The notes under the pieces: model-generated | The model's database searches: none | What the model saw: only the letters and a program-made list of their open reading frames with translations | Told to the model about the DNA's origin: nothing | Made by a program: the position numbers and the translations under genes | Source of the DNA: an uncultured Gammaproteobacteria bacterium | GTDB lineage: Bacteria; Patescibacteriota; Microgenomatia; Levybacterales; UBA12049 | DNA: 64,000 bases | Direction: 5' to 3' | Assembly: GCA_964637955.1 (NCBI GenBank) | Contig: CAZWXQ010000005.1 | Coordinates: 18,993-82,992, forward strand | Shown: positions 3,757 through 47,461 of the stretch, piece after piece | Layout: every line of letters starts with the position of its first letter | How positions within the stretch are numbered: position 1 is the first letter of the stretch

Positions 3757-4179
3757 ATGATTTTAATTATACCCATTTTGATATTTTTAATACCACGAAT
3801 TTTAAGTTTTATATTTGGGTATAGAGCAAAATCGTTTGGATTAATTACTTTAATTGAATGGACAATAATAGATATTCTAATTAATGCGCCGATAGTTTAT
3901 ATTATTGTTTTATTAGGGGGCTCAGGAGATGGCGATACTCAACCCTTAACTCCATCCAAAGAGCATGATCTATTACTTTTTGTTAGCGTTATAGTATTAT
4001 TTTTACTTCTTGTCGATATTCTTTTCTTGTCTTTAGGTGCAATAAATAAGGAAAATAATACGAAAAAAGATCCTGAGCAAAAAAAATTAGACAGTAATAT
4101 ATCAAATACTCTTCAAAATCCTGATAAGAATGCTGATGATATAATTTCAAATTCACCTACAACTAATCAAACAGCTTAA
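3757..4179 (+). CDS. small membrane protein (paralog of 4433..4786), hydrophilic C-terminal tail
   Basis: Shares PRILSFIFGYRAKSFGLITLIEWTIIDILINAPIVYII with PRILSMIFGYRSNSHGLARLLKWSVIDILINGIILIPF of the downstream paralog. Confidence 0.5.
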   Translation: MILIIPILIFLIPRILSFIFGYRAKSFGLITLIEWTIIDILINAPIVYIIVLLGGSGDGDTQPLTPSKEHDLLLFVSVIVLFLLLVDILFLSLGAINKENNTKKDPEQKKLDSNISNTLQNPDKNADDIISNSPTTNQTA

Positions 4180-4214: not shown

Positions 4215-4330
4215 AGACCTAAAGTTAAATGTACGTACTTCGGTAAAGATGTTGAGATTTCAGAAGCTATAGTTCATGAAATTTATTCAAAAGTAAGAGA
4301 CAGAAATAGATCGCTCAGTTTGATAAAGCG
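4215..4330 (+). pseudogene. decayed remnant of the 5' end of a DUF2130-like gene (copy of start of 4900..6024)
   Basis: about 80% nt identity to 4898..5010 (aaagttaaatgt..cggaaaagatgt.gagat.tcagaagctatagttcatgaa...aaaagt.agagac...ctcagtttga) but start codon lost and the zinc-ribbon cysteines mutated; stops in frame. Confidence 0.6.
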
Positions 4331-4899: not shown

Positions 4900-6024
4900 A
4901 TGGATAAAGTTAAATGTCCGCACTGCGGAAAAGATGTCGAGATCTCAGAAGCTATAGTTCATGAACTCCAATCAAAAGTCAGAGACGAAGAAAGTAAGAG
5001 ACTTAAGGCTCAGTTTGAGGAAGAAAAAGCAAAAACTCAGGCTGAAAACGAAAAAAAATTACGAGAAGAATTTGAATTAGCAAACAAACAAAGAGATAAA
5101 GATCTTGAAGAAGCACGAAAAAAAGAACTCGAACTTAAAGAAAAGCTAGAAAAAGAACAAGAAGAAAGAGAAAAGGCGGAGGAAAAAATACGACTTGAAG
5201 CAAAAAAAGCGGCAGAAAAAGAAGCAGAAGAAGGTCAAGCTTTAAAGATTAAAGAAAAAGATATTCAGATGGATCAGATTAAGCGCTTAGCAGAGGACTT
5301 AAGACGAGCCAATGAGGATTTGAAGCGAAAACTTGAGCAAGGAAGTCAGCAAATGCAAGGAGAAGCGCTCGAACAGGATTTCGAAGAAAAGCTGAAATCT
5401 ACTTTTCCAGGCGACGAATTTGTACCAGTTCCAAAAGGCGTAGAAGGAGGAGATATATGGCAAAAGGTTAAGTTTAATGGAAAAGTGGTGGGTTCTATCA
5501 TTTGGGAAACCAAAAGAACAAAGGCATGGAGTAATGGCTGGTTAACTAAATTAAAAGACGATGCTAATCGTATTTCAGCAACTGAAGCTATAATAGTTAC
5601 TCAAGTTTTACCATCAGACATGAATAATTTTGACAGAAAAGATGGCGTATGGTTAACAACTTATGAACATGCACTTGGGATTTGCAGATATGTAAGATTC
5701 CTCATAACTACTGTAGCGACTATTAAATCCAGCACAACACACACTGAAGAAGAATGGGGAGCAATTCGAGATTACATGCTATCCGATGGATTTAAAAGAC
5801 GCATGGAAACACACTTTGATAGCGTAAATGCGCTGCGAGTTGGACTAGATGCAGAAAGAAGAGCAACTGTTTTAAGGTGGAAAAAGCAAGAAGCTCTTAT
5901 TGAAAAGCTTGATATAAATACAGCCAATTTTTATGGAGAGCTACAGTCAATTGTGCCCAGTTTGCCAGAATTAAAAGAAGCTGATAATCTTATTACCGAT
6001 GGCGAAGACCAAACCCTCATTTAA
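4900..6024 (+). CDS. zinc-ribbon / long coiled-coil / C-terminal globular domain protein, DUF2130-like
   Basis: N-terminal CPHCGK zinc-ribbon, about 150 aa K/E-rich coiled coil, C-terminal GGDIWQKVKFNGKVVGSIIWETKRTKAWSNGWLTKLKDD...AIIVTQVLP block; family assignment from memory. Confidence 0.45.
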   Translation: MDKVKCPHCGKDVEISEAIVHELQSKVRDEESKRLKAQFEEEKAKTQAENEKKLREEFELANKQRDKDLEEARKKELELKEKLEKEQEEREKAEEKIRLEAKKAAEKEAEEGQALKIKEKDIQMDQIKRLAEDLRRANEDLKRKLEQGSQQMQGEALEQDFEEKLKSTFPGDEFVPVPKGVEGGDIWQKVKFNGKVVGSIIWETKRTKAWSNGWLTKLKDDANRISATEAIIVTQVLPSDMNNFDRKDGVWLTTYEHALGICRYVRFLITTVATIKSSTTHTEEEWGAIRDYMLSDGFKRRMETHFDSVNALRVGLDAERRATVLRWKKQEALIEKLDINTANFYGELQSIVPSLPELKEADNLITDGEDQTLI

Positions 6025-8581: not shown

Positions 8582-9889
8582 ATGAAAAGCTTGGAAATTA
8601 GAGGCGGTGAAGAAGTAACTGGTTCACAATTTTTACTTACTGGAAATAATCGCAGCAAATTTCTTATAGACTGTGGATTAAGTCAAAAAAATGATAAAAA
8701 TCCCGGAAACACTGACTTAGACCCCACAAATTTAAAAGGAGTTTTTATTACGCATGCTCATATTGATCATGTAGGATTGGTTCAGCAACTTGTTAGATTT
8801 CCAGAAGTGCCTATTTATATGACTCCAGCTACTCTTTCAATTGCTAATATATCATTGAGAAATTCAGAAAAAATTTCACCATCACTTTTTCCTCCAGGAA
8901 GTATCGACAAAATTATGAAAAGAACTACGACTGTTCCATATGGCAGGAGATTTGAAGTAGATGGAGCAAAAGCTATATTTAGAAATGCTGGTCATATTCT
9001 GGGTTCTGCAAGCCTTGAACTTAGTGAAGGAGGAGACATTGTTGCATTTAGTGGAGATATTGGTGATTCACCGTCTCGAACAGTAAAGCCAGCAGAATAT
9101 ATAAAAGAAGCAGATATCATAGTAATGGAAGCTACTTATGGAGGAATTGAAAGACAAGAACATAACTCTACCGAGGACATAAGAGAGGCGATAAGACTTG
9201 CAAGAAAAAATAAAGGAGATCTGCTAGTACCTGTTTTTGCAATCGACAGAGCTCAATCATTCTTAAGTGAGTTACGAAAATTAAGCGAAGAGGGTTTTTT
9301 AAAAACTATGGGTATGGATGTATTCTTTTCCAGCCCAATGGCATCTGATGTTACCCGTATTTACAATGGAAACAGAGATTTATTAAATGAAAAATTAGCT
9401 AAAATTATTCGTCCTTTTGCCTTTCCAGAACTTAGGGAAACATATACGCATGCTGAAGATTTGATGATTGAAAAACAAAAAGATCCAAAAATTATAGTTG
9501 CTGGATCTGGAATGATGGCTGGAGGAAGAATTATCGAGCACGCAAAAAGATGTCTTCCTGATGAAAGAAATGTCATGTTATTTACCGGATTTCAAGCACC
9601 TGGAACAACAGGTGAAAAAATATTACGTGGAGATAAGACAGTTAAGCTGGATGGCGAAGATATTGAGGTTAAAGCTCAAATTCTATTTACATCTCTAAGC
9701 GCCCATGCAGATCAAAATGGTTTACTTTCCTGGCTGGAATATCCTCATCTAGGACAAAGGCCAGTAAGAAATACTATAGTGGTTCACGGGGAAACCGTAA
9801 AGAGACACGCTTTTGCCAATTCAGTAAAGGAGAGATTCGGATTAACGACAACAGTTCCAGATTCTGGAGATATAATTTCATTTAGTTAA
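8582..9889 (+). CDS. metallo-beta-lactamase fold hydrolase of the beta-CASP (RNase J / CPSF-like RNA-metabolising) family
   Basis: HAHIDHVG motif 2, downstream D and H motifs, C-terminal ...SAHADQNGLLSWL... and VVHGE beta-CASP motif C. Confidence 0.65.
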   Translation: MKSLEIRGGEEVTGSQFLLTGNNRSKFLIDCGLSQKNDKNPGNTDLDPTNLKGVFITHAHIDHVGLVQQLVRFPEVPIYMTPATLSIANISLRNSEKISPSLFPPGSIDKIMKRTTTVPYGRRFEVDGAKAIFRNAGHILGSASLELSEGGDIVAFSGDIGDSPSRTVKPAEYIKEADIIVMEATYGGIERQEHNSTEDIREAIRLARKNKGDLLVPVFAIDRAQSFLSELRKLSEEGFLKTMGMDVFFSSPMASDVTRIYNGNRDLLNEKLAKIIRPFAFPELRETYTHAEDLMIEKQKDPKIIVAGSGMMAGGRIIEHAKRCLPDERNVMLFTGFQAPGTTGEKILRGDKTVKLDGEDIEVKAQILFTSLSAHADQNGLLSWLEYPHLGQRPVRNTIVVHGETVKRHAFANSVKERFGLTTTVPDSGDIISFS

Positions 9890-9895
9890 GTAGAT

Positions 9896-9903
9896 GTATA
9901 ATC
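9896..9903 (+). promoter_or_regulatory. extended -10 element TGTATAAT immediately after stop of 8582..9889, start of a about 170-nt structured leader
   Basis: gtagatgtataatc. Confidence 0.3.
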
Positions 9904-9921
9904 TTATTAACAGAGTTCCTA

Positions 9922-10072
9922 CTTAGATTTCGATCTAAGTGTAAGTAACTTTAAATCTCTCCCGCTTAGCGGAATAGTAAAGAGATTAAAGACCCAAGAG
10001 CTTTCGGCTTTGGGATAACTAACTCTAAATCTCTTCCTCTGAAGAGGAATCGATAAGAGATTAGTAAGGAGG
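9922..10072 (+). promoter_or_regulatory. structured 5' leader: hairpin H1 (CUUAGAU-uucg-AUCUAAG), element A' (9949..9987), GC hairpin (9993..10014), element A (10016..10062), then SD AAGGAGG; candidate cis-regulatory RNA / riboswitch-like tandem
   Basis: Element core: UAAC(U)AACU(C/U)UAAAUCUCU - variable hairpin - AUCGAUA/AAUAGUA - AGAGAUU; outer stem AAUCUCU/AGAGAUU; second copy at 46887..46965. Confidence 0.45.
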
Positions 10073-10080
10073 TGAAAAAT

Positions 10081-10497
10081 ATGGCAAAATTAAATCCTTA
10101 TATGCATTTTAAAGATAATGCAAAAGAAGCTATGGAATTTTATAAATCTGTCTTAGGTGGAGAACTCACGATGACTACTTTTAGAGAAGGTATGCATGAT
10201 CAAAGCCCTACAGCTGACAATATAATGCATGCACAGCTAACTGTTGGCCCAGAAATGACGCTTATGGCTTCAGATACGCCTCCTGAAATGCAAGCAAATC
10301 CAGGTGCAAGCGTAACTATTTCTCTTAGCGGAGAGGAAAGTGATGAAGAAAAGCTAAAGGGATATTGGGAAGGTCTTTCAGAAGGTGGAACCGTAAATTA
10401 TCCTTTAGAAAAAGCTCCATGGGGAGATACATTTGGAATGCTTACCGATAAATTCGGAATGGAATGGATGGTAAACATCGCTGGTCCAAAGCAATAA
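10081..10497 (+). CDS. VOC-superfamily protein, PhnB/YjdN-like (glyoxalase/bleomycin-resistance fold)
   Basis: LNPYMHFKDNAKEAMEFYKSVLGGEL ... GMEWMVNI pattern of PhnB-like family; ATG 10081 is 8 nt after AAGGAGG (ORF-track start 10072 is a GTG inside the SD). Confidence 0.6.
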   Translation: MAKLNPYMHFKDNAKEAMEFYKSVLGGELTMTTFREGMHDQSPTADNIMHAQLTVGPEMTLMASDTPPEMQANPGASVTISLSGEESDEEKLKGYWEGLSEGGTVNYPLEKAPWGDTFGMLTDKFGMEWMVNIAGPKQ

Positions 10498-10519
10498 TTC
10501 ATTCGACCTAAAATCTCTT

Positions 10520-10546
10520 AAAAGCTCACGAAAGTGAGCTTTTTTG
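10520..10546 (+). terminator. rho-independent terminator
   Basis: aaagctcac-gaaa-gtgagcttttttg. Confidence 0.6.
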
Positions 10547-20213: not shown

Positions 20214-21257
20214 ATGCCCAGGATTAAAGAATTTACTTCAAAAATCTTTTTTCATATTAAAACTCATAAAAAGCTCTTATTAATTCCTCTAATTTTAATC
20301 CCAATTTTAGTTTATTTTTTATATCCTAAAAATAAAAAAGAGATAGCTACCCAAAAAGTAACTCAAGAAGACCTAGTTCAATCTATTTCTGCAAATGGAA
20401 CACTTGAATCAGAAAATTCCGTTAACTTATCATTTTTAGCTGGAGGAAAACTTGTTTACTTGCCTCATAAAGAAGGGGATTTTGTAAACAAGGGAGAGGT
20501 AATTGCAAATCTTGACCAAAGATCAGCGCAGAAAAATCTTCAAACTTCCCTTGCGACATTTGCACAACAAAGAAATACTTTTGACCAGACTAAAGAAAAT
20601 AATAAAGATAAGCCCGTTTCTGAAGCTCTGAAAAGAATCCTTGAAAATAACCAATACGACTTAGATAAAGCTTCAATTTCAGTAGATTTACTTAGCCTAG
20701 CAAAAGAACAATCTGTTTTGACTACTCCAATTTCAGGAATCTTAACTAGACAAGATGTAAAAGTACCAGGAGTAAATGTAACTTCAGCTACTATTTTTTC
20801 TGTAACTGATCCCGCTTCAATAATCTTTAAAATGGAAGTTGATGAAGCTGATGTAGGAAAAATAAAAGAAGGTCAGAATGTAAAGATATTTCTTGATTCA
20901 TATCCAGATGAAGAACTAAATATGACTATTGATCAAATCGATTTCGCAACTCATACTACGTCAACAGGCGGAGATGCATTTTACGTAAAAGGGAAACTTA
21001 CCTCAGACAATTCTGACTATAAATTTAGAGTTGGCATGAACGGTAGCGCTGAAATAATTACAAATAAAATTCCAAACGTAGTAGTAGTTCCAATCTCAAG
21101 TATATTTGAGGAAAACAAAGTTTATGTAAAAAAAGGCAAAAAATTTGAGAAAAGAGAAATAAAAGTTGGCGTTCAAAATGATCTAATTACGCAAGTAAAA
21201 GAAGGATTAAGTGTAGGAGAGGAAGTGGCAACAGATCCATCTCTTGTAAGTAAGTAA
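20214..21257 (+). CDS. HlyD/MacA-family periplasmic adaptor (membrane fusion protein)
   Basis: N-terminal TM, coiled-coil, beta-barrel region; in operon with ABC ATPase + FtsX permease. Confidence 0.6.
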   Translation: MPRIKEFTSKIFFHIKTHKKLLLIPLILIPILVYFLYPKNKKEIATQKVTQEDLVQSISANGTLESENSVNLSFLAGGKLVYLPHKEGDFVNKGEVIANLDQRSAQKNLQTSLATFAQQRNTFDQTKENNKDKPVSEALKRILENNQYDLDKASISVDLLSLAKEQSVLTTPISGILTRQDVKVPGVNVTSATIFSVTDPASIIFKMEVDEADVGKIKEGQNVKIFLDSYPDEELNMTIDQIDFATHTTSTGGDAFYVKGKLTSDNSDYKFRVGMNGSAEIITNKIPNVVVVPISSIFEENKVYVKKGKKFEKREIKVGVQNDLITQVKEGLSVGEEVATDPSLVSK

Positions 21258-21261
21258 CTGC

Positions 21262-21939
21262 ATGAAATCAGGACAATTAATAACTCTCAAAGAAGTTAAG
21301 AAAGACTATATTTCAGAAGAAATTGTAACTAGTGTTCTTCTTGGTGTTAATTTGAATGTAGAAAAGGGAGATTTTATTGCTATAACGGGAAAGTCCGGAA
21401 GCGGAAAATCAACTCTCATGAATATCTTAGGTCTTTTAGATATTCCCACTTCTGGCACATATATTCTAAATGGCACAGATGTAAGCAAAATGGCGGAGGA
21501 TGAACTTGCTAGAGTGAGAAACAAAGAAATTGGATTCATATTTCAATCATTCAATTTACTTAATAGATCAACTGCTCTTGAAAATGTCATTCTACCTTCG
21601 ATTTATGCAGGGCTTAAAGAAGATGAAAGAGTCAAGAGAGCAAAAGAATTATTAAAAAGCGTAGGACTAGAAGAAAAAGTAAATAATAGACCTAATCAGC
21701 TTTCAGGCGGTCAGCAGCAGCGTGTAGCAATTGCTAGATCTCTCATGAATAATCCCAATCTTATTCTTGCTGACGAGCCCACGGGAAACTTGGATACAAA
21801 ATCAGGAGACGATGTTATGAATATTTTAAAGAACTTAAATAAAGAAGGGAAAACTGTAGTCGTGATAACCCATGAACCCGATATAGCTAAACAAGCCAAA
21901 AAAATAATTCATATGTCTGAAGGTATTATTAAAAGCTAA
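21262..21939 (+). CDS. ABC transporter ATP-binding protein (MacB/LolD-type)
   Basis: Walker A GKSGSGKST, signature [15 protein letters not shown], Walker [13 protein letters not shown]-loop. Confidence 0.9.
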   Translation: MKSGQLITLKEVKKDYISEEIVTSVLLGVNLNVEKGDFIAITGKSGSGKSTLMNILGLLDIPTSGTYILNGTDVSKMAEDELARVRNKEIGFIFQSFNLLNRSTALENVILPSIYAGLKEDERVKRAKELLKSVGLEEKVNNRPNQLSGGQQQRVAIARSLMNNPNLILADEPTGNLDTKSGDDVMNILKNLNKEGKTVVVITHEPDIAKQAKKIIHMSEGIIKS

Positions 21940-23132
21940 TGGAATTTAAAGAACTTTTAAAAATTTCAGTAAAAGCAATCACGGCAAATAAACTTCGAAG
22001 TTTTTTAACTACACTTGGAATAATAATTGGCGTATTTGCAATTATCTTACTTGTTTCAATTGGAACTGGACTACAAGCATATATCACTAATCAAATCGCA
22101 GGACTCGGATCAAATCTAATTTTCGTGATTCCTGGAAAACTTGGAGGTGGAAGAACACCCGGCGGAGTAGTTACAAATAAAATCGTATACCAAGATGCGA
22201 AACTACTTTCTCAAAAACTCAGAGGACAAGCTCAAATTGCCCCAGTCGTTCAACAATCAAGCACAGTAAAATATAAAGGCGAAGTCACCAAAGGATCTTC
22301 AATCCTTGGAACATCTTCAAATTATGCAAAAATAGTCCAAAATACGAAACTAACAAGTGGAAACTTCTTTTCTTCTGGTCAAGAACAATCAGGAGCTAGA
22401 GTCGCTATAATCGGCACAACTCTTCAAGATAATCTTTTTAAAAACGCAAATCCCATAGGTAAAAGAATTTATATAGGAAACAATACTTACACGGTTATAG
22501 GTGTCCTTGAGAAAAAAGGCGCGCTTTTCGGAATAGATCAAGATAACACAGCTATAATTCCTTTTTCCGCAGCTCAAAAGCAGTTTGGATTGAATAATCT
22601 AAATGCAATCTATATTTCCGTAAATGATTCAGCTTCCATGAATAGAGTTCAAGAGCTAACTAAAAAGTCACTTTTGCAACGACTTACCGAAGATGATTTT
22701 ACAGTTCAAACAGCAGAGTCTACTTTAGATATAGTCAAAAACATAACGAATATTCTCTCGATTGCGCTTGGGGGAATTGCCGCAATTTCTCTGCTGGTTG
22801 GAGGGATTGGAGTTGCCAACATAATGTTGGTGTCAGTTACCGAAAGAACGCGTGAAATAGGCCTTAGAAAGGCACTAGGAGCTAAACGTAGCGACATATT
22901 AAAACAATTTTTACTCGAAGCTGTGATACTTTCGCTTCTTGGAGGAACAATCGGGATTATTTTAGGACTAGTAGCTTCCTACATTCTTTCAATATTTTTG
23001 GTTTCAAGCGTTACGCCGTTTTCGATATTCTTGGCTTTTGGATTCTCAGTTCTTATTGGAGTGGTTTTTGGAATGGCACCTGCTATAAGGGCATCTAAAT
23101 TGAATCCAATCGATGCCTTAAGATACGAATAA
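21939..23132 (+). CDS. ABC transporter permease, FtsX-like (MacB permease domain type)
   Basis: N-terminal TM, large periplasmic domain, C-terminal 3 TM with ERTREIGLRKALGA motif. Confidence 0.8.
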   Translation: MEFKELLKISVKAITANKLRSFLTTLGIIIGVFAIILLVSIGTGLQAYITNQIAGLGSNLIFVIPGKLGGGRTPGGVVTNKIVYQDAKLLSQKLRGQAQIAPVVQQSSTVKYKGEVTKGSSILGTSSNYAKIVQNTKLTSGNFFSSGQEQSGARVAIIGTTLQDNLFKNANPIGKRIYIGNNTYTVIGVLEKKGALFGIDQDNTAIIPFSAAQKQFGLNNLNAIYISVNDSASMNRVQELTKKSLLQRLTEDDFTVQTAESTLDIVKNITNILSIALGGIAAISLLVGGIGVANIMLVSVTERTREIGLRKALGAKRSDILKQFLLEAVILSLLGGTIGIILGLVASYILSIFLVSSVTPFSIFLAFGFSVLIGVVFGMAPAIRASKLNPIDALRYE

Positions 23133-23581: not shown

Positions 23582-24319
23582 ATGGAAAATAGAATAGAAA
23601 ACGGCTATTCAAATGTGGCTCCTCTGTTAGAGAGAATGTCACGGCATGAACTGAAAAAAGAAGTACCTGAACCTGTTCAGGTCGCCTGGAATAATCTATC
23701 AGTATCACTGCGAATTGGAGACTACTTATTAGATACGACATCTGACCCACTCACTAAAAGATCTGTGGTAATAGACGCAATGACTTACCTTTCTGGAGAT
23801 AATCCCGAGCTTCAGCATGGCAACGCAACATATCATAAACAAATGTCTGGCTTAAAAGATTACTTATCTACATTACCATTATCAAGATCAAGGCAATTTG
23901 GATTTGATTTTAGAAAATTAATTATTGCTTCAGGTCGAACAGCGTCTGCTCAAAGAGCTGATGAATTACTCAAAGCAAGATATCTTGAAGGGGTGCTTAC
24001 TACAAGACTATTTATGGATTTATTACCAGCAGAATATTCTGAAATACAAGGTTTTAGAAATTACAAAAAAACAATTTACAGGCTTGCCAGAATTGGAAAT
24101 GTTTTAGATTCACTGGTCGATTTTAATGATGACTATGCTTCCGGACAAACTCTTGTCACCCCCAGCTTTACTAATAAACTTAAATTAATAGTTGGAGCAA
24201 GTGGACAAGTAATAATTGTCCTTAAAGATATTAATAAAAGAATGCTTCCAGACTTAGCAACAGGTGTTGCGCAGGCATATTTTAGAAAAGGCTCTAATCA
24301 ACTTAATTTGGAAAAATAG
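23582..24319 (+). CDS. hypothetical protein (245 aa)
   Basis: Long ORF; weak Asp-rich segments but no confident family. Confidence 0.4.
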   Translation: MENRIENGYSNVAPLLERMSRHELKKEVPEPVQVAWNNLSVSLRIGDYLLDTTSDPLTKRSVVIDAMTYLSGDNPELQHGNATYHKQMSGLKDYLSTLPLSRSRQFGFDFRKLIIASGRTASAQRADELLKARYLEGVLTTRLFMDLLPAEYSEIQGFRNYKKTIYRLARIGNVLDSLVDFNDDYASGQTLVTPSFTNKLKLIVGASGQVIIVLKDINKRMLPDLATGVAQAYFRKGSNQLNLEK

Positions 24320-24386
24320 ATCAATCCGAAACAAGTTTTAGACCTATAGTTGACAATTCATAAATTATTTTCTATAATTCGCAACT

Positions 24387-25040: not shown

Positions 25041-25088
25041 TAAATTTGCAAAAATATATCAATCTGATACAATATTTATACAAGGCCT
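25041..25088 (+). promoter_or_regulatory. promoter module (TTGCAA-N16-TGnTACAAT) nearly identical to 32801..32848
   Basis: taaatttgcaaaaatatatcaatctgatacaatatttata vs taaatttgcaaagatatatcaatctggtacaatttttata. Confidence 0.45.
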
Positions 25089-32800: not shown

Positions 32801-32848
32801 TAAATTTGCAAAGATATATCAATCTGGTACAATTTTTATAAGACCTGC
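32801..32848 (+). promoter_or_regulatory. promoter module TTGCAA-N16-TGgTACAAT (second copy of 25041..25088)
   Basis: taaatttgcaaagatatatcaatctggtacaatttttataagacctgcc; -10 ends 17 nt before ATG 32850. Confidence 0.45.
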
Positions 32849-41096: not shown

Positions 41097-41149
41097 CTAC
41101 TTAAGAAATTCTTAAGCATACTTTCAGCAAATTGGTATAATCTAGTATC

Positions 41150-41815
41150 ATGAAAATACTCCTCGTTGAAGACGAACATAAAATTGCCAACTCGATTAAA
41201 AATGGTCTTACCCAAGAAAAATATGTGGTTGATGTTTCCTTTGATGGTCAAAGTGGACTTGATTTAGCAATCTCAGAGAGCTATGACGTGATTATATTAG
41301 ATAGAATGCTTCCAGAAATAAGTGGCGATGAAATCATAACTGAAATAAGAAAAAACAAAATACACACACCAATTCTCATGCTTACCGCCAAAGGAACAAT
41401 TGAAGATAAAGTTGATGGCTTAAACATGGGCGCTGATGATTACTTAACCAAACCTTTTGCATTCCTAGAGCTTCTAGCAAGAATTAAGGCCTTAGCCAGA
41501 AGGCCAAAAAACAAAGTTGATCAAACTTTGACTTACGAGAACATAAGCCTAGATACGCAAAGATATGAAGTTAAAAGAGGAAATAATAAAATTGAATTAT
41601 CCAATAAAGAATTTACCCTTTTAGAGTTTTTCATGAGACATCCTGAAAAAGTTTATAGCAAGGACCAAATTATAGCTAGCGTATGGAGCTATGAATCTGA
41701 TATTTTGCCAAATTCTGTTGAAGTATATGTAAAACACTTGAGAGATAAGCTTGGTAAACCTGATGCAATTACCACTGTCAGGGGATTTGGGTATAAACTA
41801 AAAGTAAAGAAATAA
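41150..41815 (+). CDS. OmpR-family response regulator
   Basis: REC domain (MKILLVEDE...ILDRMLPEISGDEI...MLTAKG) + winged-helix (VYSKDQIIASVWSYE...VEVYVKHLRDKLG...TVRGFGYKL). Confidence 0.85.
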   Translation: MKILLVEDEHKIANSIKNGLTQEKYVVDVSFDGQSGLDLAISESYDVIILDRMLPEISGDEIITEIRKNKIHTPILMLTAKGTIEDKVDGLNMGADDYLTKPFAFLELLARIKALARRPKNKVDQTLTYENISLDTQRYEVKRGNNKIELSNKEFTLLEFFMRHPEKVYSKDQIIASVWSYESDILPNSVEVYVKHLRDKLGKPDAITTVRGFGYKLKVKK

Positions 41816-41816
41816 T

Positions 41817-42809
41817 ATGTTTGAAAAAACCAGAATTAAGCTTACTACCTGGTATTTGGTAATTATAATGATTATAAGCCTCCTTTTTAGTGTGGTTATA
41901 TATTCTATAGTCAATTCGGAATTCATTAGATTTGAAAGAATGCAGATTCGTATTCAGCAAGAGATTGAAAATGGAATCCAACCTCACGCTCCAAGGTTTG
42001 TTCAGATCGATCCAGATGCTATTAGTGAAGCAAGGGAACACCTAATCACAAGGCTTGCATTAATTAACTTGGCTATATTTATATTTTCAGGTGCTGCTGG
42101 GTATTTTCTTGCAGGCAGAACTTTGAGGCCCATTAAAAACAGCATGGAGGAACAAAAACGTTTTATTTCAGACTCGTCACACGAGCTTCGAACGCCATTA
42201 ACATCACTTAGAAGTGAAATAGAAGTAGGATTACTTGATAAAAATCTAACGCTTATCAAATCAAAGAAAATTCTAGAAAGTAATCTTGAAGAAGTTATTA
42301 GTCTTCAGACTCTTAGCGATAATCTTCTCGAACTTGCACAAAATGGTAAAACAATCAGCAAGGATGCTGATAATATTTCACTAGAAAATATAATTCAAAA
42401 TGCAATTAAGAAACTTGAGCCAATTGCCAAAGCAAAAGAAATAAAAATAGATAATACGGTAAACAAAACAAAAGTAAAAGGAATTGAAGATCGACTTCAG
42501 GAACTTTTCGTGATTCTTATTGATAATGCTATAAAATATTCTCCTAAAAAATCTATTATAGATATAAAATCAAAACAATCTGGAAATAAAATTGAAATTC
42601 TGGTAATTGATCATGGTAGAGGTATTTCTGAAAAAGATTTACCACATATTTTTGATCGTTTTTATAGAAGCGACGAATCCCGTTCTGAAAGCGGATATGG
42701 ACTCGGACTATCAATTGCAAAAAAAATTGCGCAGTCTCATAATGGGGAAATTGAAGCAACAAGTACACTTGGCAAAGGAACACAATTTAAGGTTATTTTA
42801 CCTGCCTAA
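41817..42809 (+). CDS. sensor histidine kinase
   Basis: 2 TM, H-box SHELRTPLTS, N-box IDNAIKYS, G-boxes DHGRGI and GYGLGLSIAKKIA. Confidence 0.85.
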   Translation: MFEKTRIKLTTWYLVIIMIISLLFSVVIYSIVNSEFIRFERMQIRIQQEIENGIQPHAPRFVQIDPDAISEAREHLITRLALINLAIFIFSGAAGYFLAGRTLRPIKNSMEEQKRFISDSSHELRTPLTSLRSEIEVGLLDKNLTLIKSKKILESNLEEVISLQTLSDNLLELAQNGKTISKDADNISLENIIQNAIKKLEPIAKAKEIKIDNTVNKTKVKGIEDRLQELFVILIDNAIKYSPKKSIIDIKSKQSGNKIEILVIDHGRGISEKDLPHIFDRFYRSDESRSESGYGLGLSIAKKIAQSHNGEIEATSTLGKGTQFKVILPA

Positions 42810-42874
42810 TATTTAGTACAATAAACAGGCTTTTTTAAGCTAACTTTAAGGAACCTGCCCTAAAATGATTCTAA

Positions 42875-44197
42875 ATGAAATTATTCTTAGGACGGATTTC
42901 GTCCAAAATTAAATCTATCTGGCAAAGGTTTTTAAAATTATCCTTATTTAAAAAGGGGATAATTTTGGTAGTTATTTTGGTGATTATCTTTGCAGGATAT
43001 AAGTTTGCAGAAAGTAAAAAAGATGTTAAACCCGTTTACCAAACGACGGCAGCTGAAAAAGGAACTCTAATCTCCTCAATTACATCGTCTGGAACAATCA
43101 CTTCAGCAAATAGTGCTTCAATCTCGACAAATGCGTCAGGAATCGTAAAAGAAATTTATGTAAAAGACGGAGACTATGTAACTGCAGGACAATCAATTGC
43201 AGCTTTGGAATTAGATCAAGTAAGTCAGCAGAAAGCAACAGCAGCTTACGCCTCTTATTTGTCAGCACAAGCAAGCTTAAATAGTGCTCAGGCAAATATT
43301 AATTCGCTCCAATCTGCGCTATTTAAAGCAAATCAAACATTTGTAAATGGCAAAGGAAGCTCAGCGACTCCTGACACTTCGGACCCCACATATATCCAGC
43401 AGCGTGCGGATTGGCTTCAGGCAGAAGCAAACTATAATAACCAACAAACTGTGATCGCAGCAGCTCAGGCCAACCTTAGTAGCGCATCTATTTCTATGAA
43501 TCAAACATCTTCGACCATAACTGCACCAATCGCAGGCTATATCTCAGGTCTTACCTTAACTGCTGGACTCCCAATTAAATCTACGAGTTCTGACTCCACT
43601 TCAAACGCCTCAGGAACAACGGTTGGAGTGGTAAAACTAGCAGATACTAATCCTCAGGCAAGTGTTAGTCTAACTGAAATCGATGTTACGAAGGTAAAAA
43701 TAGGACAAAAAGTCAGCATGACTCTTGATGCATTGTCTGATAAATCATTTACTGGAAAAGTTGTTTCAATTGATACGACTGGCTCTGTCTCATCTGGAGT
43801 AACTTCATATCCGGTGGTAATAGCGTTTGATACATCACTTGATAATATTTATCCAAATATGAGTGTTAATTCAAATATAATAACCGATGTAAAAGATGAT
43901 GTACTCATCATTCCAACAGCTGCAATTCAAACAATAAATGGCGAAAAATTTGTAAGAGTGAAAAAAGGAGACCAGGTAACGCAAGTTAGTGTAACAACCG
44001 GAAACTCTAATGATACCCAAACAGAAATTACATCAGGACTAAAAGAAGGCGATTTGGTAGTAACTGGATCAGCATCCTTACAAGCTCCAGGTGGACAAAC
44101 TGTCTCTCCATTTGGAAATGCTGGATTTGGAGGAGCCACTAGAGCAACTTCTGTAGGAGGAGCTGGTGGAAACGTAATCAGAATCCAACAAAGATAA
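42875..44197 (+). CDS. HlyD/MacA-family periplasmic adaptor
   Basis: N-terminal TM, long Q/A/S-rich coiled coil, C-terminal beta domains; followed by ABC ATPase + FtsX permease. Confidence 0.6.
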   Translation: MKLFLGRISSKIKSIWQRFLKLSLFKKGIILVVILVIIFAGYKFAESKKDVKPVYQTTAAEKGTLISSITSSGTITSANSASISTNASGIVKEIYVKDGDYVTAGQSIAALELDQVSQQKATAAYASYLSAQASLNSAQANINSLQSALFKANQTFVNGKGSSATPDTSDPTYIQQRADWLQAEANYNNQQTVIAAAQANLSSASISMNQTSSTITAPIAGYISGLTLTAGLPIKSTSSDSTSNASGTTVGVVKLADTNPQASVSLTEIDVTKVKIGQKVSMTLDALSDKSFTGKVVSIDTTGSVSSGVTSYPVVIAFDTSLDNIYPNMSVNSNIITDVKDDVLIIPTAAIQTINGEKFVRVKKGDQVTQVSVTTGNSNDTQTEITSGLKEGDLVVTGSASLQAPGGQTVSPFGNAGFGGATRATSVGGAGGNVIRIQQR

Positions 44198-44198
44198 T

Positions 44199-44891
44199 AT
44201 GATAAATATTTCTCATGTCCGCAAAGTATACAAAATGGGAGATGTAGAAACTGTTGCACTCTCTGACATTTCATTTAATATCAAAAAAGGTGAATTTGTA
44301 GCCATAATGGGTCCATCTGGATCTGGAAAATCTACACTCATGCATATTCTAGGAGCTCTCGATACTCCTACCTCGGGGAGCTATATTCTCGACGGAGAAG
44401 AAGTTAGCAAGCTTAAAGATGATGAGCTTGCCAAAATAAGAAATCGAAAAATTGGTTTTATTTTCCAGTCGTTTAATTTGCTTCCCAGAACTTCGGCTCT
44501 AAAAAACGTCATGCTTCCGATGAGATACGGAAATGTAGAAAAAAGTAAAAGGCAAGAAACTGCAGAAAAATATCTGGAAATGGTTGGACTTAAAGATCGG
44601 ATGTCGCATACTTCAAGTCAACTTTCAGGCGGCCAGCAGCAAAGAGTAGCAATCGCCCGGGGTCTTTCCATGAATCCTTCGATAATCCTTGCTGATGAAC
44701 CTACTGGAAATATAGCCTCATCTCAAGCCCAAGAAGTCATGGAGATTTTTCAAAAAATAAACAAAGAAGGTCACACGGTAGTAATGATTACACATGAGCC
44801 AGATATTGCAGATTATGCAAAAAGAATAATAACCATAAAGGATGGCAACATAATTTCAGACAAACTTAATAGCAAAATCTTCAAAGTATGA
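44199..44891 (+). CDS. ABC transporter ATP-binding protein (MacB/LolD-type)
   Basis: [33 protein letters not shown]. Confidence 0.9.
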
Positions 44892-46123
44892 TTAATTCAG
44901 AATTATTTGAAACGTTTATAGAAAGCTTATCTACGCTAACCTTAAATAAACTGCGGACTGGACTAGCTATGCTTGGAATAGTGATTGGAATTGGAAGTGT
45001 TATTGCTCTTTTATCTCTTGGCCAAGCTACACAAAAACAAATAACAAATCAGATTCAATCTCTAGGCGCAAATCTGCTTACGGTCACTCCGGGCTCACAA
45101 ACCGGTGGCGGAGGAGTAAGGGGAGCATTGGGAGGCGGCACTACTTTAACTCTTGAGGATGCAAATGCAATCTCAACTGATCCATCAATAACTACTATTA
45201 ATAACGTTTCGCCTGAGCTTAATTCGCGAGATCAAGTCACCACTGGAAAAAGCAATACAAATGTTCAGATAATTGGAAGCACACAGACCTACCCTGCAGT
45301 TCATAAGCTGGAAATATCAGAAGGATCTTTCATTACTGACTCCCAATCAAATAGTCTATCTCGTGTCGCTGTTGTAGGCCCACAAGTCGTAACAGATCTT
45401 TTTGGTGAGGGAAGTAGCGCAATCGGACAAACCATAAGAATAGCTGGACAATCATTTACAATAATTGGTGTCACTGTTTCAAAAGGTGGCACTGGATTTC
45501 TTAACCAAGACAATATAATTTATGTTCCTCTGAAAACTGCACAAAAACAGCTTTTTGGTCAAGATTACTTAAGCTCTATAGCTCTTGAGGCAAAAAGTCC
45601 TGAATTAATGACCCAGGCCCAAAGCGAAGTAGGATATCTTCTTTTAAATAGACATAAGCTATCTGATCCCGCTGAAGCCGACTTTTCTATTTTTTCTCAA
45701 CAAGATATTCTAAATGCTGTTTCTTCAACAACTGGCACATTTACAGCGCTTCTTTCAGGTATTGCGGCAATTTCTCTACTTGTAGGAGGCATTGGAATTA
45801 TGAATATAATGCTTGTGACTGTAACTGAAAGAACTCGCGAAATAGGCCTTAGAAAAGCTCTGGGAGCCACAAAAAATACTATAGTAACTCAATTTTTATT
45901 CGAAGCTGTGATTCTTACTTTTATAGGCGGAATCATAGGAATGATTGGTGGAATAATTGTGTTTTTTGGGATTTCTAAATTTGCTAATTTTCCATTCATT
46001 ATTTCAGTCCCGTCAATTTTCTTAGCATTACTCGTAAGCGGAGTTATCGGAATTATCTTCGGATGGTATCCTGCAAGAAGAGCCGCAAATTTACAACCAA
46101 TTGAAGCATTAAGATTTGAATAG
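44888..46123 (+). CDS. ABC transporter permease, FtsX-like
   Basis: Paralog of 21939..23132 (shared ...LLVGGIGI.NIMLV.VTERTREIGLRKALGA...). Confidence 0.8.
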   Translation: MINSELFETFIESLSTLTLNKLRTGLAMLGIVIGIGSVIALLSLGQATQKQITNQIQSLGANLLTVTPGSQTGGGGVRGALGGGTTLTLEDANAISTDPSITTINNVSPELNSRDQVTTGKSNTNVQIIGSTQTYPAVHKLEISEGSFITDSQSNSLSRVAVVGPQVVTDLFGEGSSAIGQTIRIAGQSFTIIGVTVSKGGTGFLNQDNIIYVPLKTAQKQLFGQDYLSSIALEAKSPELMTQAQSEVGYLLLNRHKLSDPAEADFSIFSQQDILNAVSSTTGTFTALLSGIAAISLLVGGIGIMNIMLVTVTERTREIGLRKALGATKNTIVTQFLFEAVILTFIGGIIGMIGGIIVFFGISKFANFPFIISVPSIFLALLVSGVIGIIFGWYPARRAANLQPIEALRFE

Positions 46124-46249: not shown

Positions 46250-46717
46250 ATGAAAAACCAATTAATAATAGGCGTTGTAGTTGCTTTAGCTCTCGGTGGA
46301 GCTTTAGGGTTTGTGGGCGGTATGCAATATCAAAAATCTCAGAAACCTGACATGATGGCATTCACGACTGGCTCTCAATCAGGACAGGCAATAGTGGGCA
46401 GAAGAGAAGGCGGAAATACTACATTTGCGATGCGTACAGGAGGACCAAATGGAGGTGGAGCCGTTGGGGAAATTATTTCAGCAGATGATAAATCAATCAC
46501 TGTTAAACTTCCTGATGGAAGCAGCAAAATAATTCTTATTAATAGTAAAACTTCAATAAATAAATCTTCGGAAGGAAGTATTGAAGATCTAAAAACAGGT
46601 GAAAGCGTAGCTGCATTTGGAGAAGGTAACTCAGATGGATCAATTACTGCGGTAAGCATTCAATTAAATCCACAAATGAGAATAATGACAAGACCAAGCG
46701 GTGAACCACAACAATAA
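46250..46717 (+). CDS. secreted Gly/Ser-rich hypothetical protein
   Basis: Signal/TM LIIGVVVALALGGALGFVGG, strong SD AGGAGGAGG upstream. Confidence 0.45.
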   Translation: MKNQLIIGVVVALALGGALGFVGGMQYQKSQKPDMMAFTTGSQSGQAIVGRREGGNTTFAMRTGGPNGGGAVGEIISADDKSITVKLPDGSSKIILINSKTSINKSSEGSIEDLKTGESVAAFGEGNSDGSITAVSIQLNPQMRIMTRPSGEPQQ

Positions 46718-46744
46718 GTTAAGGAACATAGAATTAAACAGCTC

Positions 46745-46772
46745 CCTTTTGGGAGCTGTTTTGCTTAGTTAA
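46745..46772 (+). terminator. rho-independent terminator
   Basis: acagctccc-tttt-gggagctgt-tttgc. Confidence 0.6.
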
Positions 46773-46886
46773 GCAGTTTTTAAGTTTTCTTCTCTAATAT
46801 AGACAAATAAGATCTAAAACTAATTTTCAATATATCCCGTAAACGTATTGAAGAGTTAATTGATCTACATTCAAAAGTGAGTCAAT

Positions 46887-46965
46887 ACTTAGATTGAAGA
46901 TCTAAGTATAACTAACTCTAAATCTCTCCATCTAAAGAAGGATCGATAAGAGATTAGTAAGGAGG
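46887..46965 (+). promoter_or_regulatory. second copy of structured leader element (hairpin CUUAGAU-ugaag-AUCUAAG + element B + SD AAGGAGG)
   Basis: Flanks identical to 10016..10072 copy (19 nt 5' and 28 nt 3'); inner hairpin differs with compensatory changes. Confidence 0.45.
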
Positions 46966-46975
46966 TGAATAATTA

Positions 46976-47461
46976 ATGATAAATAAAAAAATAGTTATAC
47001 CATTCGTAGTATTAGGATTCTTAGCTTTTAGTACATTAGCTACGCAAAGTTATGCTTCTATACAAGAAAACACAGATCCTGAATCAGCGATTGTAGAAAA
47101 AATTGCTACTAAATTTGGACTAAATAAGGTCGAAGTTCAAAAAGTTTTTGATGAACAAAAAACACAAATGCATGCCGATATGCAAAAGAAAAACGAAGAA
47201 AGATTAACTCAACTTGTTACTGATGGAAAAATAACAGAAACACAAAAAACTCTAATTCTTAACAAACATAAAGAAATGCAACAAGAAAGAGAAACTAACA
47301 AAGATAGTTTTAAAAATCAAACTCCAGAAGAGAGAAAATCTCAGATGGAATCCAAAAAAGCTGAAATGGAGGCTTGGGCAAAAGATAATGGAATTGATTC
47401 CCAATACTTAATGCCAGAATTTGGTGGCAAAGGTCATGGTGGACCTAAAATGGGGATGTAA
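46976..47461 (+). CDS. secreted K/E/Q-rich hypothetical protein ending GGKGHGGPKMGM
   Basis: Signal peptide VIPFVVLGFLAFSTLATQSYA; ATG 10 nt after AAGGAGG. Confidence 0.5.
   Translation: MINKKIVIPFVVLGFLAFSTLATQSYASIQENTDPESAIVEKIATKFGLNKVEVQKVFDEQKTQMHADMQKKNEERLTQLVTDGKITETQKTLILNKHKEMQQERETNKDSFKNQTPEERKSQMESKKAEMEAWAKDNGIDSQYLMPEFGGKGHGGPKMGM

Follow-up and report, generated by a model that had tools for sequence, protein, structure and literature searches.

Does the hairpin-rich stretch between the promoter and the SD of a VOC/PhnB-like gene act as a regulatory RNA and, if so, of what kind? The question arises in the 64-kb window (the whole stretch of DNA that was analysed), in which a unit found twice in tandem ahead of this gene is found again upstream of the gene of an exported 161-aa protein. 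The window is assigned to Patescibacteria (CPR) by its named homologues, the closest of which include Levybacteria, and the GC content is 33-37%. How Patescibacteria regulate their genes after transcription is, to our knowledge, almost wholly undescribed, and a search of the literature on regulatory RNAs in Patescibacteria/CPR retrieved nothing on this element and no Patescibacteria-specific cis-regulatory RNA. The comparisons described here indicate that the element is probably a new, narrowly distributed leader RNA element and not a recognised riboswitch.

The repeated unit and its two leaders

The window contains three copies of one unit, A (9941-9992), B (10015-10067) and C (46908-46960), with a hairpin before each of them, and two of the three (B and C) abut a strong SD. 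The pattern AAATCTCT-N(8-30)-AGAGATT has exactly three matches in the window, all on the + strand (9953-9987, 10027-10062 and 46920-46955), while 0.02 matches are expected in shuffled sequence; no further full or partial copies of the unit were found in the window outside the three. The segments 10015-10080 and 46908-46973 are 91% identical across 66 nt. The repeat, the hairpins and their order in the leader had been described in an earlier sequence-only reading, and all of them are present in the sequence with small corrections only: the identical flanks extend over 28 nt on the 3′ side, as had been reported, and over 20 nt instead of 19 nt on the 5′ side, and the extended -10 element does exist, starting at 9895, one base earlier than had been noted. 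Units B and C differ at five positions in the inner hairpin. This variation had been taken as compensatory, which holds for one pair (U-A to C-G); another pair is changed on both sides into an A/A mismatch, and the remaining change lies in the loop.

At site 1, the -10-like promoter element of the VOC/PhnB-like gene, TGTATAAT (9895-9902, + strand), immediately follows the stop of the upstream beta-CASP gene. TG directly abuts TATAAT in this element, which was not listed by the promoter consensus scan because it has no -35 match. On the same strand it is followed by upstream hairpin 1, UACUUAGAU-UUCG-AUCUAAGUG (9920-9941; MFE -8.0 kcal/mol, z = -2.7), noted before as CUUAGAU-uucg-AUCUAAG, and then by unit A, by a GC-rich hairpin, CCCAAGAGC-UUUCG-GCUUUGGG (9993-10014; MFE -9.6 kcal/mol), after which AUAACUAAC follows, and by unit B. 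The GC-rich hairpin takes the "upstream hairpin" position relative to unit B; it lies between the units without a U-tract, just as had been remarked, and was not called by the terminator scan. The SD of the gene, AAGGAGG, occupies 10066-10072 on the + strand, and its GGAGG begins 2 nt past the last base of helix P1 of unit B. The coding sequence (10081-10497, + strand, ATG at 10081) specifies a VOC/PhnB-like (YjdN-like) protein of 138 aa, which matches Pfam PF06983 and PF00903 and, below that model's cut-off, the NCBIfam YjdN model.

Site 2 is the leader of the 161-aa gene (46976-47461, + strand, ATG at 46976), which closes a row comprising the genes of a response regulator (41150-41815), a histidine kinase (41817-42809), a membrane-fusion protein (MFP, 42875-44197), an ABC ATPase (44199-44891), a MacB-type permease (44888-46123) and a DUF5666 protein (46250-46717). 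A terminator (46736-46761) separates the DUF5666 gene from the 161-aa gene. The promoter box of the latter, TTAAG-N6-TTAAG and then TAATAT (46769-46800, + strand), has a single match in the window and is kept upstream of this gene in all six genomes compared, those lacking the element included; similar direct repeats are found upstream of the response-regulator gene and of the MFP gene. The TTAAG-N6-TTAAG box is a predicted response regulator binding site, and we infer that the 161-aa gene belongs to the neighbouring two-component regulon, with a leader of about 170 nt. In this leader, hairpin 1, AUACUUAGAU-UGAAG-AUCUAAGUAU (46885-46909, + strand; MFE -10.4 kcal/mol, z = -3.6), with the loop UGAAG in place of the UUCG of site 1, precedes unit C and the SD AAGGAGG (46959-46965, + strand, read in the sequence). 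Since hairpin 1 is also found at site 2, the whole leader module was duplicated and not the unit alone. Transcription of the leaders is suggested by these promoter-like sequences.

The exported 161-aa protein has no sequence match in Pfam, NCBIfam or the PDB. Its AF2 model is all-helical (pLDDT 78) and finds no fold match in the PDB (best E = 1). A CpxP/Spy-like chaperone, considered as a candidate identity that would account for the location beside a two-component system, was dropped on account of the missing sequence match and of a confident helical AF2 model without fold match.

Structure and covariation of the unit

Once five further copies from related Patescibacteria contigs are added, the conserved structure is, as judged by the alignment, one long imperfect hairpin. 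The order of its parts is AUA, P1 (8-9 bp), A(A/G), P1b (3 bp), UC, a variable P2, UC, P1b′, A, P1′, an A-rich spacer of 2-7 nt and the SD; P1′ often has one bulged A, and UC/UC forms a 2x2 internal loop. For instance, unit B reads AUA, P1 ACUAACUCU, AA, P1b AUC, UC, P2 UUCCUC-UGAA-GAGGAA, UC, GAU, A and AGAG(A)UUAGU, and its MFE structure (-16.4 kcal/mol) equals the consensus fold. The same is true of unit C, and the consensus hairpin is the MFE structure of the unit folded alone in seven of the eight units. Unit A diverges most: its P1 has lost two terminal pairs, UC/UA takes the place of UC/UC and, folded alone, it prefers the alternative register AAUCUCU/AGAGAUU (-11.1 kcal/mol). The eight known copies come from about five genomes, and several of them are paralogous or closely related.

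The fold was examined on A5, a sequence-only MAFFT alignment of seven units, in which 90.8% of the cells pair, 11 of the 18 pairs show changes on both sides and the covariation score is 0.53, against 0.18 in shuffles. None of 500 shuffles matched the A5 values for pairing, compensatory pairs or covariation score, and control structures slid by 1-3 columns on A5 gave 30-43% pairing and 0-3 compensatory pairs. With the eighth copy (L021 1623-1673) included, 91% of the cells are paired and 11 of 17 pairs are compensatory (0/500 shuffles). RNAalifold, independently, returns the same fold.

The variation is spread over all three helices. The 5′ strand of P1 is ACUAACUCU in window units B and C, where it pairs with AGAG(A)UUAGU, AGAAAAACU in L021 and L024, AGAAACUCU in L025 and GUAACUCU in L026. 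P1b occurs as AUC/GAU, AAC/GUU and AGU/ACU. For P2 (1-6 bp plus loop), six sequences unrelated to one another occur, and L026 has nearly lost it. The helix with its internal loops spans 15-18 bp, with L026 at only ~11 bp plus a large loop. Among the unpaired residues, no change is seen at U18, C19 and U36 or at A13, A15 and A41, and C37 is retained by seven of the eight copies. The unit therefore contains conserved unpaired nucleotides framed by covarying helices, a generic feature of riboswitches. The number of independent compensatory events is modest, roughly seven in P1 plus P1b, in addition to the six different P2 stems.

Another hairpin directly precedes each unit, and its sequence is not kept from one locus to the next: three loci have ACUUAGAU/AUCUAAGU, unit B has the GC hairpin, L025 a 13-bp AU-rich stem and L021 only weak stems. 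The stem sequence of hairpin 1 is shared by site 1, site 2 and L026, and a degenerate form of it is present in L021.

These comparisons bear on what the sequence-only reading had proposed. A structured leader element of the RNA type was recognised correctly, since the copies lie on the sense strand and show real covariation once the relatives are added. The outer stem then assumed, AAUCUCU/AGAGAUU, has to be abandoned as the conserved one; it has no compensatory pairs across the relatives and is 4.6-4.9 kcal/mol worse in units B and C. It is an alternative register of the same 3′ strand and may form an alternative conformer in the window subfamily, with the comparative support lying with P1. 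Likewise, the supposed linker AUCGAUA is really UC, P1b′ (GAU) and A.

A covariance model, R1, was applied, with filters switched off, to the window and to 94 kb from relatives (~158 kb in total, a small sample). In the 64-kb window, the three copies score 56-70 bits (A, 56 bits, E = 6e-11; B, 70 bits, E = 2e-14; C, 66.5 bits) and the next match 15.9 bits. In the relatives, R1 recovers its training copies and found an untrained one, L021 1623-1673 (59 bits, E = 2e-11), with a new P2, GUACC/GGUAC; no match with E < 0.4 was obtained in L016, L017, L018, L023 and L027 (~65 kb in total). All R1 matches in the window and the 94 kb of relatives are SD-proximal and on the sense strand. Dispersal without regard to gene starts and an absence of covariation, the two outcomes that the earlier reading had named as speaking against a functional RNA, were not seen: the stems covary, and all eight copies lie in sense orientation 5′ of an SD or of another unit.

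The same reading had recognised no named riboswitch class, and no Rfam family matches the unit. Rfam 15 at gathering threshold returned two tRNAs only in the whole window, and in permissive Rfam scans of both sites, L021 and L025 the best match over the units was a microRNA model (E = 0.28; 17.9 bits against a threshold of 68). The one lower E-value, 0.044, belongs to the Phe leader model at L021 2170-2227 (minus strand), a match over the terminator palindrome and not over the unit. The over-specific exact pattern CTAAATCTCT-N(15-25)-AAGAGATTAG had four matches in species-representative genomes and 11 in JGI metagenomes, all of them by chance and located in coding or unrelated DNA. A degenerate unit pattern had no matches on viral contigs, and phage and plasmid collections showed no similarity.

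Presence, absence and position in related genomes

The conserved, recurrent home of the element is, in the genomes compared, the leader of the exported 161-aa protein gene, beside two-component and MacAB-like efflux genes. A covarying unit stands at the place of unit C upstream of this gene in L021/L022 (83% protein identity to the window), L024 (67%), L025 (64%) and L026 (63%); these related units have little primary sequence of the stems in common with the window units and share the same architecture. The element is absent upstream of the 161-aa gene in L023 (68% identity) and L027-L029 (60%), and at such loci the SD follows almost at once after the conserved promoter box.

The association with the VOC/PhnB-like gene, to which the sequence-only reading had tied the element, is not conserved. 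The VOC/PhnB genes of L016, L017 and L018, with 78-83% amino-acid identity, carry the same promoter (TGCTATAAT or TGTATAAT at the -10 position), and have leaders of about 25 nt, in which the SD follows after only about 11-15 nt, with no element and no hairpins. The structured insert of ~145 nt at site 1 is therefore lineage-specific; on this comparison, the VOC/PhnB leader gained the element only in this lineage, and the link is recent. L027 and L017 come from the same genome, and in it the element is absent at both the 161-aa and the VOC/PhnB genes.

A third gene family is added by L021, in which the copy found by R1 begins 17 nt past the macB stop codon and leaves 4 nt between its end and the SD of the DUF5666 gene, the leader of which lacks the element in the window. 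The L021 gene with the element and the window gene without it have an identical SD and spacer (GGAGGTGATTATATG), and therefore the element sits beside a native SD and does not bring one. The site-2 copy of the window resembles this L021 DUF5666 copy more than the copy at the 161-aa gene of L021 itself. Empty sites are not precise excisions. TAA is found on both sides of the hairpin in seven of the eight copies; it could be a target-site duplication but need not be one, as the last A-U pair of the hairpin and the A-rich tract that leads to the SD share bases with it. Even between close relatives, loci have gained, lost or exchanged the element, a turnover that a mobile repeat would show as well.

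Its position relative to the genes is uniform. All eight copies have the sense orientation relative to the downstream gene, and seven of them end 2-7 nt before GGAGG or GGGGG, the eighth being unit A, which precedes unit B. The downstream genes belong to three unrelated families (161-aa exported protein, DUF5666 protein and VOC/PhnB-like protein). The unit thus adjoins the SD on the sense strand within the 30S landing zone, the location expected of a protein-binding translational operator. The folds pair the SD only with non-conserved coding sequence and never with a conserved part of the element, and no U-tract terminator is present at the leader elements. With neither a conserved pairing that sequesters the SD nor a terminator, the leaders offer no support for a classical riboswitch. 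Nor is the former proposal supported that refolding of the 3′ strand could gate the SD: 2-7 nt lie between P1 and the SD, and the latter is not paired by any conserved segment.

Several other readings of the leaders were discarded. Anti-SD pairing was considered for the CCUCU of unit B, which can pair with GGAGG, and is not conserved in unit C or in the relatives. GGA sites of the CsrA type, located 3′ in P2, are confined to the three window units and absent in L021, L024, L025 and L026. A promoter inside the element (TATAAG/TATAAC before P1) would place the transcription start inside P1, against the covariation, and the leaders contain no ORF preceded by an SD that could be a leader peptide. 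As to an integron attC site, the core sites R″ (RYYYAAC) and R′ (GTTRRRY) that should bound its imperfect hairpin are absent: the window units end in AGAGATTAGT without a GTT core (by inspection of alignment A6), and there is no integrase in the window; GTTAC occurs only in L026, by chance of its P1 sequence.

Possible roles of the leader hairpin

The reading preferred here, to which we give roughly an even chance, is that the unit is a cis-acting 5′-leader RNA hairpin of ~45-50 nt, conserved in structure in one clade of Patescibacteria, which serves as operator for a trans-acting factor. Such a factor, most likely a protein, would recognise the lower stem and its two internal loops and, sitting 2-7 nt away from the SD, would obstruct the 30S subunit or trap it; alternatively or additionally, the hairpin may change mRNA decay. 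At the VOC/PhnB-like gene, a copy duplicated in tandem has been placed between promoter and SD, which would give two binding sites. The invariant UC/UC and A and the freely varying P2 fit a recognition site in the lower stem, and such a pattern appears more in keeping with the site of a trans-acting factor than with a ligand pocket plus expression platform.

Known translational operators provide a precedent. The E. coli thrS and rpsO operators act by hindering or trapping the 30S subunit, the same logic as proposed here, and the thrS operator has two hairpin domains in tandem. Like the unit, the thrS, rpsO/S15 and MS2 coat-protein hairpins are stem-loops immediately upstream of or at the ribosome-binding site, with the recognition features concentrated in bulges and loops. 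For the rpsO operator, a switch from a pseudoknot to a double hairpin and back has been described (PMC3985624). The unit differs from these systems in that it has no sequence similarity to them, that no candidate cognate protein was found among the 68 window ORFs scanned, none of which encodes CsrA, Hfq or a similar RNA-binding protein, and that its genes are not those of self-regulating RNA-binding proteins, two of the products being exported and one a VOC enzyme.

Gain, loss and swapping, together with the TAA flanks, are the reasons why a small mobile palindromic repeat (REP- or MITE-like) stays a serious rival, unlikely as we hold it to be. A transposase encoded elsewhere would recognise it by its inverted arms or in the form of a folded single strand, insertion would favour TAA directly before SDs, and any effect on expression would be incidental. 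This would account for the differing presence of the element at the same gene among relatives (VOC/PhnB, DUF5666 and 161-aa leaders), for near-identical copies at unrelated genes in one genome, for subtypes that seem swapped between loci and for the Logan contigs L020 and L024, which end in or beside the element, as at repeats. REP hairpins also keep their structure via compensatory change and, like the unit, REP/BIME and Correia-type MITEs are short imperfect palindromes in transcribed intergenic DNA, are present in several copies per genome and vary in presence among relatives, with conserved bases flanking the hairpin. However, such repeats would not be expected to keep the strict orientation (8/8) and the distance of the 3′ end from the SD (2-7 nt) at three independent gene families; the unit (~48 nt) is shorter than typical MITEs, its copies are few, and no others were found in the window or in ~65 kb of relatives lacking the element at these genes. 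Neither transposase, integrase nor RAYT was detected by Pfam (E <= 1e-5) among the 68 ORFs of the 64-kb window. The imprecise empty sites count against mobility as well, as does the fact that one gene's leader, that of the 161-aa gene, carries the unit across several diverged genomes despite only 63-83% protein identity to the window. A mobile repeat of this sort would still be unusual in its choice of target, the few bases before an SD. An RNA-processing or stability element, with an RNase III-type cut in the internal loop or protection from a 5′ exonuclease that uncouples the downstream gene from upstream RNA, is somewhat harder to credit. The translated unit starts right where the hairpin lies, the helix with its internal loops is 15-18 bp long, and the intercistronic L021 copy after macB has no apparent terminator or promoter; yet the ~11 bp of L026 is short for RNase III, and a mere stabiliser would not need the invariant UC/UC and A.

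A small riboswitch aptamer, in which a metabolite or an ion would be bound by the internal loops (A(A/G) facing A; UC facing UC) and the hairpin so stabilised would alter ribosome access, is improbable in our estimate. Invariant unpaired nucleotides within covarying helices, the place of the element directly at the translation start region, a tandem arrangement like that of tandem riboswitches, which would sharpen the response at the VOC/PhnB-like gene, and an alternative register competing for the P1 3′ strand in units A, B and C and in the second L021 copy would all be accommodated by it. As with small hairpin-type and tandem riboswitches such as guanidine-II mini-ykkC and preQ1-I, the unit has ~50 nt or less, is near the SD and is arranged in tandem at one locus. 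In contrast to these classes, it has no Rfam match, keeps its conserved residues in internal loops and not in the apical loop, leaves the SD outside any conserved pairing and serves a gene set that is not coherent: an exported helical protein, a DUF5666 protein and a VOC protein suggest no common ligand. Moreover, the alternative register does not covary, a terminator is missing, and the element has a very narrow, patchy distribution. Least of all do we expect a double-stranded DNA operator, an inverted repeat bound by a transcription factor, and the chance left to it is slight indeed. Inverted repeats do lie downstream of promoters, and the hairpin 1 stem (ACTTAGAT/ATCTAAGT) is conserved in sequence rather than covarying; nevertheless, the spacer of hairpin 1 varies from 3 to 5 nt, the P1 arms lie ~30 bp apart, and the arms of the unit change together without conservation of sequence, the opposite of half-site conservation. 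It is this covariation, together with three G-U pairs on the sense strand, that speaks for RNA rather than a double-stranded DNA operator, and the element presumably acts on RNA.

Beyond the operator hairpin favoured here, a wider and distinctly more tentative idea is that the hairpin is the sensor of a hitherto undescribed, Patescibacteria-specific post-transcriptional control that governs one regulon, whether as a small riboswitch of a new class or as the operator at which a new RNA-binding regulator acts. A covarying SD-adjacent hairpin, a covariance model and a small gene set make the element a concrete candidate that can be put to the test. Its gain at the VOC/PhnB-like and DUF5666 genes offers a natural comparison, with and without it, for a leader element that recruits genes. 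If the idea is true, exported or envelope-related genes beside a two-component/MacAB module would be wired into one regulon together with a VOC enzyme, and the control system would spread to new genes by copying of the operator in front of their SDs.

Surroundings of the leader element

The leader of the VOC/PhnB-like gene lies directly downstream of a gene (8582-9889) for a protein with a beta-CASP/RMMBL metallo-beta-lactamase fold, a member of an RNA-processing nuclease family. Since the adjacency of the beta-CASP and VOC/PhnB-like genes is not kept in relatives, the presence of a nuclease gene beside this leader is probably a coincidence. Past the 3′ end of the VOC/PhnB-like gene, at 10505-10545, the sequence CCTAAAATCTCTTAAAAG is similar to the 5′ half of the unit, the repeated hairpin of about 50 nt in the leader, and an intrinsic terminator (GCTCAC-GAAA-GTGAGC and a T-run) comes after it. 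The covariance model of the unit, scored against the whole window, gives no score at CCTAAAATCTCTTAAAAG, and the likeness is therefore probably due to chance.

Further copies of the element might exist elsewhere in the genomes concerned. Two independent contigs of the Logan short-read collection, one of them from the window's own organism, start inside or right beside the unit or hairpin 1, the separate stem-loop directly 5′ of it (L020, positions 1-20; L024, positions 1-10). Because assemblies are prone to break at repeated or palindromic sequences, these contig ends weakly hint at more copies in those genomes.

Paralogous operons, a direct repeat and a possible divergent start codon

The window contains two paralogous operons encoding a membrane-fusion protein, an ABC ATPase and a MacB-type permease (20214-23132 and 42875-46123), whose permease genes hold DNA repeats of 73-80% identity (22773-22970 and 45758-45955). 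An 82-nt direct repeat with 87% identity is also found at 4220-4301 and 4905-4986, one copy just after the ORF at 3757-4179 and the other at the 5′ end of a DUF2130 gene (4900-6024), which suggests a partial duplication of the N-terminal part of this gene.

Positions 3985-4002 of the related contig L025, which correspond to the N-terminus of the exported 161-aa protein, carry ATA AAT AAG AAA at 8-9 nt after the SD, where other homologues have ATG AAT AAA AAA. The called ATG is 15 nt further downstream. Either translation begins at ATA, a non-canonical start codon, or the protein is shortened.

Repeated promoter-like and operator-like sequences

A promoter-like block of 40 nt, TAAATTTGCAAAAATATATCAATCTGATACAATTTTTATA, with TTGCAA and TACAAT spaced by 17 nt, occurs in three copies that are 80-93% identical (24303-24342, 25041-25080 and 32801-32840). 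They precede three ORFs that lack Pfam matches, and could be a common promoter or operator for a paralogous gene set.

Direct repeats of the form (C/T)TTAAG-N5/6-(C/T)TTAAG, with an 11-bp period, are found upstream of the response-regulator gene (41103-41120), the membrane-fusion/ABC/MacB genes (42833-42850) and the 161-aa protein gene (46769-46786), in each case followed by a -10-like hexamer. The copy upstream of the 161-aa gene is kept in five relatives. These repeats look like the box of the OmpR-type regulator, which would mark a small regulon.
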